From Escherichia coli (GTDB lineage: Bacteria > Pseudomonadota > Gammaproteobacteria > Enterobacterales > Enterobacteriaceae), in NCBI RefSeq assembly GCF_024700885.2, contig NZ_CP117016.1: a stretch of 64,000 bases of DNA. The stretch is one strand, 5' to 3'. Below the pieces are notes generated by a model. That model did no database searches, was not told where the DNA came from, and saw nothing but the letters and a program-made list of their open reading frames with translations. The translations under genes and the position numbers were made by a program. Positions 1 to 46,940 of the stretch are shown one piece after another (the stretch's first letter is position 1; each line of letters begins with the position of its first letter).

Positions 1-56
1 ATGAATACGTGGTTGCTGTTGAGCATCAACTTCGTGGCTGGATGTGAGGAAGAAAA

Positions 57-761
57 ATGGCTACATCGACAGTAATTCCAGGAGATATCACCACGCTAAA
101 GGGAGATGTCAGTAAAACTAAGGAAGATATTTCCTCAATTAACGGAAAAGTATCAACGCTTCAGACTGATATGACCAGTGCAAAGCAGGATATCAGCACC
201 AGATACACAAAAACTGAAGTTGATAATAAGCTGAAAAACAAAGTGGAAGTGAACGATCTGGAAAGTGGTCGTTATGGCGGAGATTTTTATCCACTGACAG
301 GTCGTGAAGCGTTTTATTTATGGAATTTGGCCACGACTACAGCGGCGGCAAACCTTTATCTTAATCCTGACCCCGCAATTTCGTCTGTGCTGCGGTCAAC
401 ATCGTCTATCCGCTATAAACATTCAGTAGAGACAATAGATTCAGAGCACGCTGATCTCATTTTCAGGATGCGCCCTGTGTGGTACAGGTCACAATGCGAA
501 AATGACAGGCGTGACTGGGGATTCTACGGATTGATTGCCGAGGAAGTAGGAGAAATTGCCCCTCAGTTTGTACACTGGCGACCAGCTAACGAAGATGATG
601 CTCCTGAAGCTATTTCCAGCAATGGCCTTGTTGCCGAAGGTGTAATGTACGAACGTCTGGTTGTTCCACTGATTCACCATATCCAGAAGCTGACTGAAAG
701 AGTTGATGAACTTGAGTCAGAATTAAAGTTGTTATTAACTTCCCGAAGCGATATCGGATAA
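57..761 (+). CDS. Phage tail-fibre-like protein: N-terminal coiled-coil, C-terminal intramolecular-chaperone (peptidase S74-like) domain; possibly a fragment
   Basis: 234-aa ORF with heptad-like N-terminus and C-terminal GFYGLIAEEV...VMYERL segment typical of tail-fibre/endosialidase chaperone domains. In-frame stop just upstream at 45-47; another frame closes at 73-75. Confidence 0.5.
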   Translation: MATSTVIPGDITTLKGDVSKTKEDISSINGKVSTLQTDMTSAKQDISTRYTKTEVDNKLKNKVEVNDLESGRYGGDFYPLTGREAFYLWNLATTTAAANLYLNPDPAISSVLRSTSSIRYKHSVETIDSEHADLIFRMRPVWYRSQCENDRRDWGFYGLIAEEVGEIAPQFVHWRPANEDDAPEAISSNGLVAEGVMYERLVVPLIHHIQKLTERVDELESELKLLLTSRSDIG

Positions 762-771
762 AGGAGGAATA

Positions 772-1059
772 ATGGATATAACACCTTTCCTTCATGCACT
801 TTGTGCTGTGGCTGCGCAGGTACTGGTTGGTCTTTTTACCGGAAACTGGGCTTACGGGGCGATAGCCGGTTGTACGTTCTTCATTGCGCGTGAACACACC
901 CAGGCAGAATATCGCTGGATCGAAATGTTCGGGCATGGCAAGCGAATGAATATGCCGTGGTGGGGCGGTTTTGATACACGTGCATGGGATGTGGCAAGCC
1001 TGATGGATTTTGCTGTGCCGGTGGTGGCGTGTCTGCTGATCTGGCTGTTGATCCGTTAA
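772..1059 (+). CDS. Small hydrophobic membrane protein, hypothetical (phage moron-like)
   Basis: 95-aa ORF with two hydrophobic helices; strong RBS AAGGAGG 5 nt upstream of ATG; follows the tail-fibre-like ORF. Confidence 0.4.
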   Translation: MDITPFLHALCAVAAQVLVGLFTGNWAYGAIAGCTFFIAREHTQAEYRWIEMFGHGKRMNMPWWGGFDTRAWDVASLMDFAVPVVACLLIWLLIR

Positions 1060-1064
1060 ATATA

Positions 1065-1110
1065 AAAAGCCGCAGTAACTTGCCATGGCAGGATACTGCG
1101 GCTGGTTTGT
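1065..1110. terminator. Bidirectional terminator-like hairpin between convergent genes
   Basis: Inverted repeat agccgcagta / tactgcggct (1068-1077 and 1094-1103), flanked by A-run upstream and T-rich tract downstream. Confidence 0.4.
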
Positions 1111-1166
1111 GAGTTTAAATAGTGTGTTTATTGCGGTATATTTAAAGGACTTAATGGATTACATAT

Positions 1167-2543
1167 CTATGATATTCCTGAGATATCCTCTTCAAGCTCT
1201 TTTACTGATTTCGCAATTTTAAATTTAAACTTCCTCTCTATTTCACTATTGCTAAGTTTTTTTTCCTTCTCTTTACCTATCCACATAGAAACAAGTTCTC
1301 GTTTCTGAGATATATGTAAATTATCAAAGTTAGGTATGTATTTAAAAGTCTCCGCTCTACCTCTGCGGAGTTCATAGAAAGTTTTAATCAAAGACTTTGG
1401 TTTTATTTCTGATGAAAGGCCGAATCGGTGGATAAGATTATTGATAGTATGATTAACAGAGCGAAGTTGAGCTGTTGAGGTTATTTGTGAGAAGTACGAT
1501 ACCCATCCCAATCGTTTACCTTCAAACACACATCCCGTAATTCTGAGATTTAGTTTCCACTGACAATATGCAACAGCTCGTTCTTTATCACGCTTACTTT
1601 TAGCTTGTAGTAGAGCGTGCCTGTATGCAGTAAAAATCCTTGCTAAAGATGACTCAAATCTAAGAATGCTCTCATGTTTTATCAATAATTCTCGATTTTC
1701 TATGTGGTATCCCAAAAAGTTAAAACTTTCATCCAAGCTGCCTACTTTGGATTTTGAGTTCTCTTCATTTAATGGATGTGGGTTTAAATTTAATGATTGA
1801 AGCTTATCAATGATATGAGAAGCTATTTTTGTTGCTTGATATTTTGGTGTTAAAATAAGAATGTCATCAACGTATCGCATGTACCATATGTCATGCATTT
1901 TATTGATTTCATCATCAAAATTAGATAGTGATATTTCAGCTAAAATGTTTGATATCGCTAATCCCTGAGGTACCCCTCTGGTATTATTCGGGATACCTTT
2001 GCTTCCTGTTGTTCCACTTACAGTAGGCACGATTAATGATGATGTTATTAACTGTCTAATTTCTTTTTTTCTAATTTTATTTTTTATTGTATTAATTATC
2101 AATTTATGTTCAATTGAAGGATAGAAACTTTTAAGATCTATTTTTGCATATTCAGCATAAAGACTGCTGTTTAATGCTTCTTTCAATGAGTCAATTACTG
2201 TATGTGGTAGTTTTAATCTGGAGTTAGGATATATTTCCGTAAGGCATTCACAGAGAGTTCTAAGAGTAATTCTGTCCCTAGCAGTTGGTATGGAAATCTG
2301 TCTGGGTGTAGAGTTAGCGCCTTTAGATATTAATTTTTCTTTATATGCTGTAAATTTGTAATTGCCAGAGTTAACCTTTTCAAAAATGAAAGCGATCTCA
2401 TTTTTTATTGTCAAATCAAGTTTTGATGGGCGAATCCGATCTATGCCAATCGCTCCTGATTCTTTGATTTTTTCAGTGTATACTTTTAGAAGGTTTTTTT
2501 TCGAGAATGACTTTTTAAAAATTCTGCTTGCAGTCATAGTCAA
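1167..2543 (-). CDS. Reverse transcriptase, non-retron, defence-associated (UG/Abi/DRT-like); exact family unassigned
   Basis: 458-aa ORF with ordered RT motifs: PRQISIPTARDRITLR, KIDLKSFYPSI (catalytic Asp), GVPQGLAISN, YMRYVDDILIL (YxDD), FLGYHI; plus ~150-aa helical C-terminal extension. AT-rich. Confidence 0.8.
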   Translation of the reverse strand: MTMTASRIFKKSFSKKNLLKVYTEKIKESGAIGIDRIRPSKLDLTIKNEIAFIFEKVNSGNYKFTAYKEKLISKGANSTPRQISIPTARDRITLRTLCECLTEIYPNSRLKLPHTVIDSLKEALNSSLYAEYAKIDLKSFYPSIEHKLIINTIKNKIRKKEIRQLITSSLIVPTVSGTTGSKGIPNNTRGVPQGLAISNILAEISLSNFDDEINKMHDIWYMRYVDDILILTPKYQATKIASHIIDKLQSLNLNPHPLNEENSKSKVGSLDESFNFLGYHIENRELLIKHESILRFESSLARIFTAYRHALLQAKSKRDKERAVAYCQWKLNLRITGCVFEGKRLGWVSYFSQITSTAQLRSVNHTINNLIHRFGLSSEIKPKSLIKTFYELRRGRAETFKYIPNFDNLHISQKRELVSMWIGKEKEKKLSNSEIERKFKFKIAKSVKELEEDISGIS

Positions 2544-3066
2544 TCCAAAGATATATTAATGGGAGTATATAAAGGGCGGCAGTAGTAAATATTCGAAGTA
2601 ATATCCATAAAATAACAATTATTTTTTCTTTTTGTGTGGGGATCCTCGTCGTAAGTCCAACTTGAGTTACCCTTGAAATTTTATCATCTATGTCACGGTG
2701 ATTCTCAACCTCATTGAGCAAATTAAAATATTTTTCTTTCTGTTCAAGAGTTAACTGTTGACTGGTGGTAATGTCAAAATAGAGTCGCTGTAGTGCAATA
2801 TAATTCCTTCTCATGGCTATTGCTCGACCACGAAAATCTAGGTTAGATACGATCAGCGAAATACCCAGTAGGGCCACCGAAAGTATTGCCGCAACGATAT
2901 CTGTGTTATCTCCTAGAACTTTTGGAAATCGCAACGTTACAATTGAAAGTACCGCACTCAATATAGCATACCAAACGAGGATAAATTGAGAGTGCTTTTC
3001 AAGCCATTCTAGTCGATGGTGCGCTTGGATACGGGCTTTATATGTAAACCAAATATTGTCATGCAT
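2515..3066 (-). CDS. Multi-pass membrane protein with SLATT-like topology; putative effector partner of the RT
   Basis: 183-aa ORF with hydrophobic helices ILVWYAILSAVLSIVTLRF, IVAAILSVALLGISLIVSNL and C-terminal IIVILWILLRIFTTAALYILPLIYLWI. Its stop overlaps the RT start by 29 nt on the same strand. Confidence 0.5.
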   Translation of the reverse strand: MHDNIWFTYKARIQAHHRLEWLEKHSQFILVWYAILSAVLSIVTLRFPKVLGDNTDIVAAILSVALLGISLIVSNLDFRGRAIAMRRNYIALQRLYFDITTSQQLTLEQKEKYFNLLNEVENHRDIDDKISRVTQVGLTTRIPTQKEKIIVILWILLRIFTTAALYILPLIYLWIDYDCKQNF

Positions 3067-3288
3067 AAAAGATCCTTTTTAAAAGCGGAAGGGGCAGGAT
3101 ATATTGGAATCATTGAACATCCTGCCCGGCAGGATCAGTGAGCATAAGCTCAACAGTAAAATATTACTGTTCATTATCAGAGCCGCCCTTGCATGCACAA
3201 GAGGAAAAACCTGCCCCATCCTTTTGAATTATTACAATTTAATGATCTTAAAGTCAATACAAGTGAATGGTGTCCAGAGATGATGAAC

Positions 3289-3537
3289 TTAATGAACAAA
3301 CCACTCGTCAGCAGACTCCCAGGTATCTTTCAGAGTTTCCTGAACAAAAGTTTTAGCTGAATCTTTATCGGCGGTGCGCGTAACAGAAAGGCCATCGTTG
3401 CTGGTGGCTTTTACGATCACCTCTACATCGTCATAACGCTTACTGATGCGTCGAGTTAATTCTTCCTTTAACGCATCCACAGCACCGCTTGGCATTTTAG
3501 TCATTTTCTCTTTAGCTATGCAGATCTCAATACGCAT
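3289..3537 (-). CDS. DinI-family DNA-damage-inducible protein (prophage-type)
   Basis: 82-aa [12 protein letters not shown]...[11 protein letters not shown]...[16 protein letters not shown] matches the DinI family pattern. Confidence 0.7.
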
Positions 3538-3552
3538 AAAAATCCCTCTACA

Positions 3553-3596
3553 CTGTGTTTGTATACAGTGTTATTTTTAACTGTATGAATAAACAG
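3553..3596 (-). promoter_or_regulatory. Two tandem LexA (SOS) boxes upstream of the dinI-like gene
   Basis: CACTGTGTTTGTATACAGTG (3551-3570) and CTGTATGAATAAACAG (3581-3596) both fit CTGT-N8-ACAG, 16-60 bp upstream of the minus-strand start. Confidence 0.6.
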
Positions 3597-3756
3597 TGTC
3601 AATAGAACAAAGATTGCTGCATGTACAAATGTTCTTTGGCTACAAATACACCTACTGATCATGTTCTGCTATGCTCTGATACCTCCAAAATGTACAATCA
3701 GCGGCATGAATTTTTCTTTGTACATATGATTGTACATAATTAAAGAGACAACAATT

Positions 3757-5343
3757 ATGACAAGCCTTTTGGCCGCAGAGGTAGCGAAAAGAAGAACCTT
3801 TGCAATTATTTCTCACCCGGACGCCGGTAAGACTACCATCACCGAGAAGGTGCTGCTGTTCGGACAGGCCATTCAGACCGCCGGTACAGTAAAAGGCCGT
3901 GGTTCCAACCAGCACGCTAAGTCGGACTGGATGGAGATGGAAAAGCAGCGTGGGATCTCCATTACTACTTCTGTGATGCAGTTTCCGTATCACGATTGCC
4001 TGGTTAACCTGCTCGACACCCCGGGGCACGAAGACTTCTCGGAAGATACCTATCGTACCCTGACGGCGGTGGACTGCTGCCTGATGGTTATCGACGCTGC
4101 AAAAGGTGTTGAAGATCGTACCCGTAAGCTGATGGAAGTTACCCGTCTGCGCGACACGCCGATCCTCACCTTTATGAACAAACTTGACCGTGATATCCGC
4201 GACCCGATGGAGCTGCTCGATGAAGTTGAGAACGAGCTGAAAATCGGCTGCGCACCGATCACCTGGCCGATTGGCTGCGGCAAGCTGTTTAAAGGCGTTT
4301 ACCACCTTTATAAAGATGAAACCTATCTCTATCAGAGCGGTAAAGGCCACACGATTCAGGAAGTCCGCATTGTCAAAGGGCTGAATAACCCGGATCTCGA
4401 CGCTGCGGTTGGTGAAGATCTGGCACAGCAGCTACGTGACGAACTGGAACTGGTGAAAGGCGCGTCTAACGAGTTCGACAAAGAGCTGTTCCTTGCGGGC
4501 GAAATCACTCCGGTATTCTTCGGTACTGCGCTGGGTAACTTCGGCGTTGATCATATGCTGGATGGCCTGGTGGAGTGGGCCCCTGCGCCGATGCCGCGTC
4601 AGACTGATACCCGTACCGTAGAGGCGAGCGAAGACAAATTTACCGGCTTCGTATTTAAAATTCAGGCCAACATGGACCCGAAACACCGCGACCGCGTGGC
4701 GTTTATGCGCGTGGTATCCGGTAAATATGAAAAAGGCATGAAGCTGCGCCAGGTGCGCACTGCGAAAGATGTGGTGATCTCCGACGCGCTGACCTTTATG
4801 GCGGGTGACCGTTCGCACGTTGAAGAAGCGTATCCTGGCGATATCCTTGGTCTGCACAACCACGGCACCATTCAGATCGGCGACACCTTTACCCAGGGTG
4901 AGATGATGAAGTTCACCGGTATTCCGAACTTCGCACCAGAACTGTTCCGTCGTATCCGCCTGAAAGATCCGCTGAAGCAAAAACAGCTACTCAAAGGGCT
5001 GGTACAGCTTTCCGAAGAGGGCGCGGTGCAGGTGTTCCGTCCGATCTCCAACAACGATCTGATCGTTGGTGCAGTTGGTGTGCTGCAGTTTGATGTGGTG
5101 GTAGCGCGTCTGAAGAGCGAATACAACGTTGAAGCAGTGTATGAGTCAGTCAACGTTGCCACTGCCCGCTGGGTAGAATGTGCGGACGCGAAGAAATTCG
5201 AAGAGTTCAAGCGTAAGAACGAAAGCCAACTGGCGCTTGATGGCGGCGATAACCTCGCTTACATCGCTACCAGCATGGTCAACCTGCGCCTGGCGCAGGA
5301 ACGTTATCCGGACGTTCAGTTCCACCAGACCCGCGAGCATTAA
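3757..5343 (+). CDS. prfC: Peptide chain release factor 3
   Basis: ORF matches RF3 ([21 protein letters not shown] GTPase motif) essentially throughout; the first ~8 residues differ from the K-12 N-terminus as I recall it. Confidence 0.9.
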
Positions 5344-41893: not shown

Positions 41894-42826
41894 ATGGTTA
41901 AAGTTTATGCCCCGGCTTCCAGTGCCAATATGAGCGTCGGGTTTGATGTGCTCGGGGCGGCGGTGACACCCGTTGATGGTGCATTGCTCGGAGATGTAGT
42001 CACGGTTGAGGCGGCAGAGACATTCAGTCTCAATAACCTCGGACGCTTTGCCGATAAGCTGCCGTCAGAACCTCGGGAAAATATCGTTTATCAGTGTTGG
42101 GAGCGTTTTTGCCAGGAGCTGGGTAAGCAAATTCCAGTGGCGATGACCCTGGAAAAGAATATGCCGATCGGTTCGGGCTTAGGCTCCAGCGCCTGTTCAG
42201 TGGTCGCGGCGCTGATGGCGATGAATGAACACTGCGGCAAGCCGCTTAATGACACCCGTTTGCTGGCTTTGATGGGCGAGCTGGAAGGGCGTATCTCCGG
42301 CAGCATTCATTACGACAACGTGGCACCGTGTTTTCTTGGTGGTATGCAGTTAATGATCGAAGAAAACGACATCATCAGCCAGCAAGTGCCAGGGTTTGAT
42401 GAGTGGCTGTGGGTGCTGGCGTATCCGGGGATTAAAGTCTCGACGGCAGAAGCCAGGGCTATTTTACCGGCACAGTATCGCCGCCAGGATTGCATTGCGC
42501 ACGGGCGACATCTGGCAGGCTTCATTCACGCCTGCTATTCCCGTCAGCCTGAGCTTGCCGCGAAGCTGATGAAAGATGTTATCGCTGAACCCTACCGTGA
42601 ACGGTTACTGCCTGGTTTCCGGCAGGCGCGGCAGGCGGTCGCGGAAATCGGCGCGGTAGCGAGCGGTATCTCCGGCTCCGGCCCGACTTTGTTCGCTCTG
42701 TGTGACAAGCCGGATACCGCCCAGCGCGTTGCCGACTGGTTGGGTAAGAACTACCTGCAAAATCAGGAAGGTTTTGTTCATATTTGCCGGCTGGATACGG
42801 CGGGCGCACGAGTACTGGAAAACTAA
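41894..42826 (+). CDS. thrB: Homoserine kinase
   Basis: 310-aa product [24 protein letters not shown]... Confidence 0.95.
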
Positions 42827-45509: not shown

Positions 45510-46940
45510 TTACTCCTGCGAAACATCATCCCACGCGTCCGGAGAAAGCTGGCGACCGATATCCGGATAACGCAACGGATCAAACACCGGGCGCACGCCG
45601 AGTTTACGCTGGCGTAGATAATCACTGGCAATGGTATGAACCACAGGCGAGAGCAGTAATATGGCGGTCAAATTGGTAATAGCCATGCAGGCCATAATGA
45701 TATCTGCCAGTTGCCACATCAGCGGAAGACTTAGCAAGGTGCCGCCGATGACCGTTGCGAAGGTGCAGATTCGCAGACACCAGATCGCTTTAGGGTTGTT
45801 CAGACGTAAGAAGAAGAGATTGTTTTCGGCATAAATGTAGTTGGCAACGATGGAGCTGAAGGCAAACAGAATAACCACGAGGGTAACAAACTCCGCACCC
45901 CAGGAACCCATTAACACCCGCATCGCCTTCTGGATAAGCTGAATACCTTCCAGCGGCATGTAGGTTGTGCCGTTACCCGCCAGTAATATCAGCATGGCGC
46001 TTGCCGTACAGATGACCAGGGTGTCGATAAAAATGCCAATCATCTGGACAATTCCTTGCGCTGCGGGATGCGGAGGCCAGGACGCAGCCGCCGCTGCCGC
46101 GTTTGGCGTCGACCCCATTCCCGCCTCATTGGAAAACATACTGCGCTGAAAACCGTTAGTAATCGCCTGGCTTAAGGTATATCCCGCCGCGCCGCCTGCC
46201 GCTTCCTGCCAGCCAAAAGCACTCTCAAAAATAGACCAAATGACGTGGGGAAGTTGCCCGATATTCATTACGCAAATTACCAGGCTGGTCAGTACCCAGA
46301 TTAACGCCATCAACGGGACAAACCCCTGCATGAGCCGGGCGACGCCATGAAGACCGCGAGTGATTGCCAGCAGAGCAAAGACAGCAAGAATAATGCCTGT
46401 CACCAGCGGAGGAAAATCAAAAGAAAAACTCAGGGCGCGGGCAACGGCGTTCGCCTGAACTCCGCTGAAAATTATGCCGTAGGCGATGAGCAAAAAGAGG
46501 GCGAACAGAACGCCCATCCAGCGCATCCCCAGCCCGCGCGCCATATACCATGCCGGTCCGCCACGAAACTGCCCATTAACGTCACGTTCTTTATAAAGTT
46601 GTGCAAGGGAACATTCGGCAAACGAGGTCGCCATGCCGATAAACGCGGCAACCCACATCCAGAAGACGGCTCCAGGTCCACCGGCGGTAATAGCCAGCGC
46701 AACGCCGGCCAGGTTGCCGCTACCCACGCGTGCCGCAAGACTGGTACACAATGACTGAAATGAGGTTAAACCGCCTGGCTGTGGATGAATGCTATTTTTA
46801 AGACTTTTGCCAAACTGGCGGATGTAGCGAAACTGCACAAATCCGGTGCGAAAAGTGAACCAACAACCTGCGCCGAAGAGCAGGTAAATCATTACCGATC
46901 CCCAAAGGACGCTGTTAATAAAGGAGAAAAAATCTGGCAT
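45510..46940 (-). CDS. yaaJ: Alanine/sodium symporter family transporter YaaJ
   Basis: 476-aa multi-TM product MPDFFSFINSVLWGSVMIYLLFGAG... Confidence 0.9.
   Translation of the reverse strand: MPDFFSFINSVLWGSVMIYLLFGAGCWFTFRTGFVQFRYIRQFGKSLKNSIHPQPGGLTSFQSLCTSLAARVGSGNLAGVALAITAGGPGAVFWMWVAAFIGMATSFAECSLAQLYKERDVNGQFRGGPAWYMARGLGMRWMGVLFALFLLIAYGIIFSGVQANAVARALSFSFDFPPLVTGIILAVFALLAITRGLHGVARLMQGFVPLMALIWVLTSLVICVMNIGQLPHVIWSIFESAFGWQEAAGGAAGYTLSQAITNGFQRSMFSNEAGMGSTPNAAAAAASWPPHPAAQGIVQMIGIFIDTLVICTASAMLILLAGNGTTYMPLEGIQLIQKAMRVLMGSWGAEFVTLVVILFAFSSIVANYIYAENNLFFLRLNNPKAIWCLRICTFATVIGGTLLSLPLMWQLADIIMACMAITNLTAILLLSPVVHTIASDYLRQRKLGVRPVFDPLRYPDIGRQLSPDAWDDVSQE

Follow-up and report, generated by a model that had tools for sequence, protein, structure and literature searches.

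The window, a 64,000-bp stretch of Escherichia coli DNA, carries a prfC reading frame of 528 aa whose product matches the NCBIfam prfC model TIGR00503 over its full length in a profile search (1089.6 bits). The initial annotation described this RF3 as having an altered N-terminus followed by agreement with the K-12 protein, and both parts of the description stand. The start at ATG 3757 is confirmed; the K-12 protein begins MTLSPYLQEVAKRR and the window protein MTSLLAAE, and the two are identical from EVAKRR onward within the compared stretch. Upstream of the reading frame, TGTACA(A/T) occurs at exactly 3622, 3691, 3719, and 3731, the four copies first reported. The features of the junction are collected in Table 1.

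Table 1. Features at the prfC junction, in window coordinates
Feature	Position	Strand	Remarks
Right end of ~44.7 kb lambdoid prophage, att core included	1..3818		Remainder lies left of the window
P arm, phage-derived arm of attR	3594..3804	+	(Near-)identical in attP/attR of cdtI, 2H10, Ayreon, and Stx2c_PV98-693
TGTACA site 1, distal single; candidate arm-type site	3622..3627		
TGTACA site 2, single; candidate arm-type site	3691..3696		
Tandem pair TGTACAtatgatTGTACA(taa), candidate arm-type sites	3719..3736	+	12 bp start to start; -38/-26 from the new prfC ATG
Phage-supplied prfC 5' end	3742..3804	+	RBS-like AAGAG 3742-3746, ATG 3757, codons 1-16
Putative core-type half-site AATTATT	3804..3810	+	Mirrored in attP by AATAATT 9 bp to the right
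att core ATTATTTCTCACCC, 14 bp	3805..3818	+	RF3 codons I18-P22; crossover inside
Hybrid prfC ORF	3757..5343	+	Codons 1-16 phage, then shared 14-bp core, remainder host

The region is the right-hand junction (attR) of a lambda-like prophage that has entered prfC within its first codons. The window is 100% identical to E. coli MLI114 (NZ_CP117013.1), in which yjjG and prfC are separated by a lambdoid prophage of ~44.7 kb that extends from tail-fibre genes to an integrase adjoining yjjG. The annotation of this prophage lists terminase, portal, tail tape measure, gpJ, antiterminator, a lysis cassette, and a CI-like repressor of the LexA family; no tra genes are annotated in this tailed-phage genome. 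A cognate integrase at the other end of the element had been named as something to look for, and MLI114 supplies it: the far end holds a 405-aa tyrosine integrase with an arm-binding domain, accompanied by a 69-bp pseudogene beside int. This end retains the intergenic DNA between yjjG and prfC and the original start of prfC, up to ...TTTGCCATTATTTCTCACCC, and then continues as phage DNA, and the orphaned native prfC 5' fragment beside int would encode 24 residues before a stop. Elsewhere in the prophage, genes for a UG17 reverse transcriptase and a SLATT protein adjoin DinI, and BovA (Borvo) adjoins int.

Alignment to insert-free DNA, proposed along with the initial annotation, defines the att core as the 14-bp ATTATTTCTCACCC shared with K-12 attB. 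The same 14 bp are identical in attR (window), attL (MLI114), attB (K-12), and attP (free phages). K-12 attB reads ...TTTGCCATTATTTCTCACCCGGACGCC... and the window attR reads ...TTTGCAATTATTTCTCACCCGGACGCC..., and the flanking differences place the crossover inside the core, since base 3804 is A in attR but C in attL and attB, and divergence begins directly after CACCC. Integration with a replacement N-terminus, as first claimed, is upheld, with the crossover moved from the very first codons to codons 18-22. In the free phages 2H10, cdtI, and Ayreon, attP is contiguous and joins the P arm of the window through the core to the P' arm of MLI114, and where an Stx2c phage record aligns with the core, its depositors marked a 14-bp 'duplication due to insertion'. 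The module comprises a P arm of ~210 bp, the 14-bp core, and a P' arm of 230 bp. Toward the left, Ayreon diverges beyond ~3591-3594, and in two matches where the DinI module is joined to other integrases the similarity ends at 3605. An inverted pair, AATTATT/AATAATT, surrounds TCTCACCCC in attP, and these would be putative core-type sites flanking the crossover. The strict IHF consensus WATCARNNNNTTR has no match on either strand between 3540 and 3830. A scan of viral contigs that used an alignment of the integrase yielded no divergent attPs, only E. coli prophage ends that are 98-99% identical. An O26:H11 match with a late start of homology was considered as a second prfC element and rejected, as it comes from an insert-free strain and reflects a megablast artefact.

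The integrase has the Pfam domains Arm-DNA-bind_3, Phage_int_M, and Phage_integrase, with the arm-DNA-binding domain (PF13356, E=1.9e-16) at residues 3-90 and the catalytic domain (PF00589, E=1.2e-17) at residues 205-379. The catalytic Arg, His, and Tyr positions, for example R203, R343, H365, and Y374, are invariant in 17 homologues. This architecture is of the P4 type, and the protein is shown to belong to the IntSXT subgroup. It is 100% identical to the integrase of Ayreon, 99% to that of cdtI, and 97.3-98% to those of 2H10, PhiR63_1, and the CC119 Stx1a/Stx2c phages (Stx1a/Stx2c 97.5%); identity falls to 46% for Gifsy-1 and SPN3UB and to 39% for R997. The element also encodes an excisionase, Xis, in an unannotated 64-aa ORF at 42516-42710 of the prophage locus, outside the window; the product is nearly identical to the annotated 2H10 excisionase. 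A tyrosine-recombinase catalytic domain with a separate arm-binding domain, one core common to all four att sites, a repeat unlike the core in both arms of attP, and an encoded Xis are features of heterobivalent tyrosine-integrase att systems of the lambda/P4 type, and all are present here.

No hexamer is more frequent in the 449-bp attP than TGTACA, which has eight copies, four in each arm. The four P' copies lie beside int (...atcTGTACAtgtgctTGTACAtaaTGTACAaaac...atttGTACAaggtgagtaATG) and repeat the tandem-pair format seen next to the prfC start. A second repeat of the P' arm, CTTTCA, is present four times. On the comparative evidence given below, the hexamers are likely arm-type integrase sites. 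The initial annotation had allowed either arm-type or core sites; the former fits, and the latter does not, because the window copies are 69-183 bp away from the crossover region and the motif recurs in the other arm.

Comparison with relatives extends the motif well beyond this phage group. The comparison set comprises 86 loci with integrase homologues (39-100% identity) from genomes and phages of Gamma-, Beta-, and Alphaproteobacteria. A pair of the nGTACA-N6-nGTACA type precedes int in 81 of them, 33-93 bp from the start (mostly 60-85 bp), in DNA that is otherwise unalignable between loci. In the 80 genome loci, every upstream TGTACA lies within 350 bp of int. For the P arm, the evidence from distant relatives comprises three other attPs, those of Acinetobacter phage ABMM1, R997, and SPN3UB, which are independent and contiguous and all contain a tandem pair. 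The P arms of E. coli are nearly invariant and therefore offer no within-group conservation test of the four sites. In SPN3UB the repeat is TGTCCA-N6-TGTCCA in both arms, a both-arm switch from TGTACA read in this one contiguous attP. Only four integrases have TGTCCA; they constitute a monophyletic clade, 62-97% identical to one another and at most 50% to the rest, and their arm-binding domains show clade-specific substitutions (S29W, Q41F, and others). The N-terminal domain of Int is well conserved between the phage and R997, while their Xis proteins do not align at all and the SPN3UB Xis aligns at 28% over 58 aa. Shared by phage and R997 along with conserved Int N-domains and dissimilar Xis proteins, the motif tracks the integrase and not the excisionase.

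Three other explanations bear on these observations, and two of them are excluded. Ordinary allelic variation of prfC, without any insertion, could be entertained insofar as RF3 N-termini vary between species in the very segment concerned, but a survey of 5,426 complete E. coli genomes, 5,424 of them with any match, leaves it next to no probability. The intact yjjG-prfC junction is found in 4,717 of the 5,426 genomes, the yjjG/prfC-fragment/integrase junction in 699, and the P arm with the variant prfC start likewise in 699, the two totals of 699 being compared as counts and not as lists of the same genomes. Of the 5,424 genomes with a match, 5,416 are covered by the intact and integrase junctions, and just as many by the intact junctions and variant starts. 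The variant N-terminus is therefore carried along with the element and does not represent an allele of strains that lack it; free phage genomes, moreover, contain the variant 5' end within attP. The same MTSLLAAE start in insert-free strains had been named as the observation that would refute integration, and these counts fail to refute it. A chance cluster of hexamers in AT-rich phage DNA fares equally badly. Over the whole window the count of TGTACAW, 18 against 12.6 expected from shuffles, is not significant, which is what chance would predict; the non-random part is the clustering. Four of the 12 TGTACA copies in the 64,000 bp fall within 116 bp (Poisson p=1.8e-9 for at least four in such a stretch at the background rate, ~1e-6 after correction for all stretches), 0.05 copies would be expected in 157 bp from the local base composition, and both motif and N6 pair spacing recur in the 81 of 86 homologous loci.

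A single rival stays live: TGTACA may instead be recognised by the excisionase (RDF), by a host factor with an architectural or regulatory role, or by regulators associated with RNA polymerase, or it may act as promoter or operator sequence for the hybrid prfC and for int. RDF sites, too, can be tandem direct repeats, such as the tripartite attP repeat bound by Gifsy-1 Xis (PMC2603039); the window pair stands just 5' of the RBS of the rebuilt prfC, and the copies in the P' arm just 5' of int. This reading is nevertheless unlikely. The motif occupies both arms, which is unusual for an RDF layout, and the elements that share it have conserved Int N-domains but unrelated RDFs, as the Xis alignments of R997 and SPN3UB illustrate. 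The switch from TGTACA to TGTCCA follows the integrase clade, and R997 keeps the motif despite another orientation of int and other neighbours. The CTTTCA repeat of the P' arm is, in addition, a better candidate for an RDF or host-factor site.

The integrase recombined the phage attP with prfC at the 14-bp core inside codons 18-22. If the hexamers are arm-type sites, its N-terminal arm-binding domain would have occupied the eight TGTACA copies (four P, four P') while its catalytic domains acted at the core. Simultaneous binding of arm and core would build a bridged intasome suited to integration and, with the phage Xis, to excision. The P' copies overlap the upstream region of int and probably also serve int autoregulation.

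Insertion removes part of the target gene, and the phage supplies a substitute. The att core lies inside prfC, so integration cuts off the native promoter, RBS, and first 17 codons. The P arm compensates with an imitation of the prfC 5' end, consisting of an RBS-like AAGAG, an ATG, and 16 codons, and full-length RF3 is restored. This phage-borne 5' end is also present in the attP of free phages, where it is followed by HPNN and a stop. The only residues changed by the insertion are the 7-8 at the RF3 N-terminus, a segment that is variable among natural RF3 orthologues (MTLSPYLQ, MSNPFLE, MTNQAA, MSFKQELAAQ, and others). Among the ten conserved codons of the phage copy, six differ from K-12 through eight base changes, and because all of these are synonymous, they argue for selection on the phage copy that preserves the conserved part of RF3. 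Because prfC is a non-essential gene in E. coli, its intact reading frame is less telling as evidence of function than in the case of an essential gene.

A promoter for the hybrid prfC would have to come from the P arm, since the adjacent phage genes (dinI-like, SLATT, RT) lie on the opposite strand and cannot read through into prfC. A scan of the + strand from 3200 to 3900 found no sigma-70 consensus promoter; manual inspection found the weak -10-like hexamers TACAAT (3693-3698) and CATAAT (3735-3740), neither with a properly spaced -35. At the far end of the prophage, a scan of the DNA from the native prfC promoter to int detected an AT-rich 13-bp hairpin but no canonical terminator, and this promoter may read through into int.

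The prophage is a member of the described group of lambdoid prfC phages of the cdtI/Ayreon/2H10 type. Besides the 97.3-100% identical integrases of cdtI, Ayreon, 2H10, PhiR63_1, and the CC119 Stx1a/Stx2c phages, the P arm, core, and replacement prfC start of cdtI/Ayreon-type phages are essentially identical to those of the window. Integration at prfC is described for the CC119 Stx1a/Stx2c phages (PMC10132054), and the integrases of the cdt1 phage and SXT are placed in one cluster that inserts at prfC (PMC8138268). Members differ in cargo, with cdtABC in cdtI, stx in the CC119 phages, and UG17 RT/SLATT and BovA here, and the DinI module that adjoins the P arm here is missing from Ayreon.

SXT/R391 elements use the same prfC site and also supply a new N-terminus. 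Integration at the prfC 5' end with a replacement N-terminus has reportedly been known since the work of Hochhut and Waldor on SXT in 1999. The prophage is a relative within the IntSXT subgroup and not an SXT/R391 member: membership is defined by nearly identical Int (PMC2791158), and an integrase that is only 39% identical to R997 Int falls outside that definition. SXT/R391 elements are also conjugative, with a tra and setCD/setR backbone, whereas the element here is a tailed phage. R997 attP has a core region in common with the phage (...ATTATTTCCCACCC...) and a TGTACA-N6-TGTACA pair ~25-45 bp upstream of the replacement prfC ATG, compared with -38/-26 in the window, and further TGTACA pairs stand in its other arm. 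Its int faces attP with xis between them, while here int faces away and starts 230 bp from the core. The R997 Xis is unrelated to the phage Xis, and its replacement N-terminus, MANQDFLNEINKRR..., is unlike that of the window RF3.

Gifsy-1 and SPN3UB share the integrase domain layout of the phage, and Gifsy-1 has a 14-bp core (PMC2603039), as here. SPN3UB likewise carries a replacement 5' end for its target gene (MKNIRNFSIIAH) and tandem N6-spaced repeats in both arms. In contrast to the present phage, these two target lepA at a paralogous P-loop-coding position, have the arm motif TGTCCA instead of TGTACA, and encode an Xis of 93-94 aa. The paralogous target DNA in the two translational GTPase genes is P-loop-coding, reading ...ATT ATT TCT CAC CC| in prfC and ...ATY ATT GCY CAC AT| in lepA.

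On balance, these observations lean toward a joint reading in which TGTACA-N6-TGTACA would be the arm-site code of an IntSXT-related clade that spans phages, SXT/R391 ICEs, and islands in Gamma-, Beta-, and Alphaproteobacteria. A Gifsy-1-like subclade would have been re-coded to TGTCCA along with changes in its arm-binding domain, and the clade would have moved between the paralogous prfC and lepA P-loop targets, each time carrying a substitute 5' end.

Two further systems resemble parts of this arrangement. In KplE1 (CPS-53), the int promoter region overlaps the arm-type sites of attL, which leads to negative autoregulation of intS (PMC2951348). Both KplE1 (IntS/TorI) and phage P4 Int have int facing away from att, and the P' arm layout here is alike, although KplE1 targets the tRNA gene argW and not prfC. 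By analogy, the P' copies may mediate int autoregulation in the prophage. The dusA-specific elements, exemplified by IMEVchUSA3, insert at a 5' end and give the target gene another promoter and a modified N-terminus, as lacZ fusions demonstrated (PMC8409611). They resemble the prophage in occupying the 5' end of a housekeeping gene, but the gene is a different one and the elements are mobilisable islands, not phages.

Integration at the prfC 5' end with a replacement N-terminus, the phage group, and the integrase cluster are already known, and the junction described here does not overturn current understanding. The explicit arm-site motif with its TGTACA/TGTCCA split may be a new detail, as may the cutting of prfC and lepA at paralogous P-loop-coding positions by related integrases. 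A literature search, with key primary papers outside its reach, found no paper that names TGTACA as the arm site of this integrase or that states the arm motif or the paralogous targeting. The precisely delimited att module is a ready substrate for work on arm-site recognition. Integrases of this group move Shiga-toxin, CDT, and defence-system cargo and, via SXT/R391 relatives, antibiotic resistance, and a known arm-site code would aid both att-site prediction in related islands and integrase engineering.

For genome annotation, 13% of complete E. coli genomes (699/5,426) have a phage-rebuilt prfC. The true start of such a gene is ATG 3757 in the window, and the small "hypothetical protein" pseudogene adjoining int is the orphaned native prfC start.

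Seven integrase homologues (encoded at L068, L069, L073, L074, L077, L086 and L005) adjoin a truncated lepA 5' end (...IRNFSIIAH) rather than prfC (...RRTFAIISH). The lepA assignment of these truncated 5' ends is confirmed by the K-12 LepA N-terminus. The lepA and prfC junctions occupy paralogous codons in the GTPase P-loop motif, immediately after CAC AT in lepA versus CAC CC in prfC. The attP of Salmonella phage SPN3UB holds a substitute lepA start, MKNIRNFSIIAH.

In the attP of phage Ayreon, the base just left of the core is a host-type C (L089 about 2768, corresponding to window 3804), where the other phage attPs and the window attR carry A, which hints at a past exchange reaching beyond the 14-bp identity. 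The circular record of the SXT/R391 element R997 (L172/L173 junction) reads ...GCTATCATC up to the record start, followed directly by ATTATTTCCCACCC... across it. This junction looks like a partial core duplication from circularisation of the record; the exact R997 attP core is better taken from elsewhere.

At attL (L001 46302-46700, in the - strand reading), the promoter region of native prfC lies with an orphan 24-codon fragment of the gene, both pointing into the P' arm and int, and the prfC or lepA fragment is co-oriented with int in all homologous loci having an identified fragment. No canonical terminator was found between the native promoter and orphan fragment and int, just an AT-rich 13-bp hairpin. 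Read-through from the host promoter into int is possible in the lysogen. The P' arm of attP (L001 about 46360-46520, reverse complement; locus L003 2745-2900) also holds four copies of a second repeat, CTTTCA, which recurs in relatives whose integrases are at least 66% identical; in relatives further away, repeated (T)AAGACA/AAGTCA-like words take its place. Such repeats are candidate Xis or host-factor sites. An unannotated ORF in L001, the locus with the int end of the prophage, is probably the prophage's Xis, missed by RefSeq, judging by its near-identity to an annotated excisionase.

Features near the prophage ends and at related integrase loci
Feature	Location	Strand	Basis
DinI-like gene	window 3289-3537	-	Pfam DinI, E=1.5e-19
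LexA-box-like palindromes CTGT-N8-ACAG (n=2)	window 3553-3568 and 3581-3596		sequence pattern
Defence-type reverse transcriptase (RT)	within window 1167-3066	-	PADLOC RT_UG17, E=2e-158
SLATT_5 two-TM protein, overlapping the RT	within window 1167-3066	-	RTasSLATT, E=8e-57
710-aa CHAT-domain protein, adjoining int	L001 42818-44950, outside window		PADLOC BovA of Borvo defence system, E=1e-241
64-aa ORF	L001 42516-42710, outside window	+	near-identical to annotated excisionase of phage 2H10
lepA-type junctions (7 loci)	about 230-250 bp upstream of int; counterpart window 3805-3818

Beside the P arm, in window 3289-3602, both LexA-box-like palindromes coincide in part with a promoter-like site on the - strand (TTGACA 3602-3597), whose -35 hexamer lies within the att module common to phage Ayreon. 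Unlike the window prophage, Ayreon carries this module without dinI at that place. Between dinI and the tail-fibre genes lies the RT_UG17 and SLATT_5 pair, which is by sequence a DRT-class anti-phage cargo module. The BovA match lies beside the integrase, and defence cargo is therefore found at both prophage ends, bordering the att arms.
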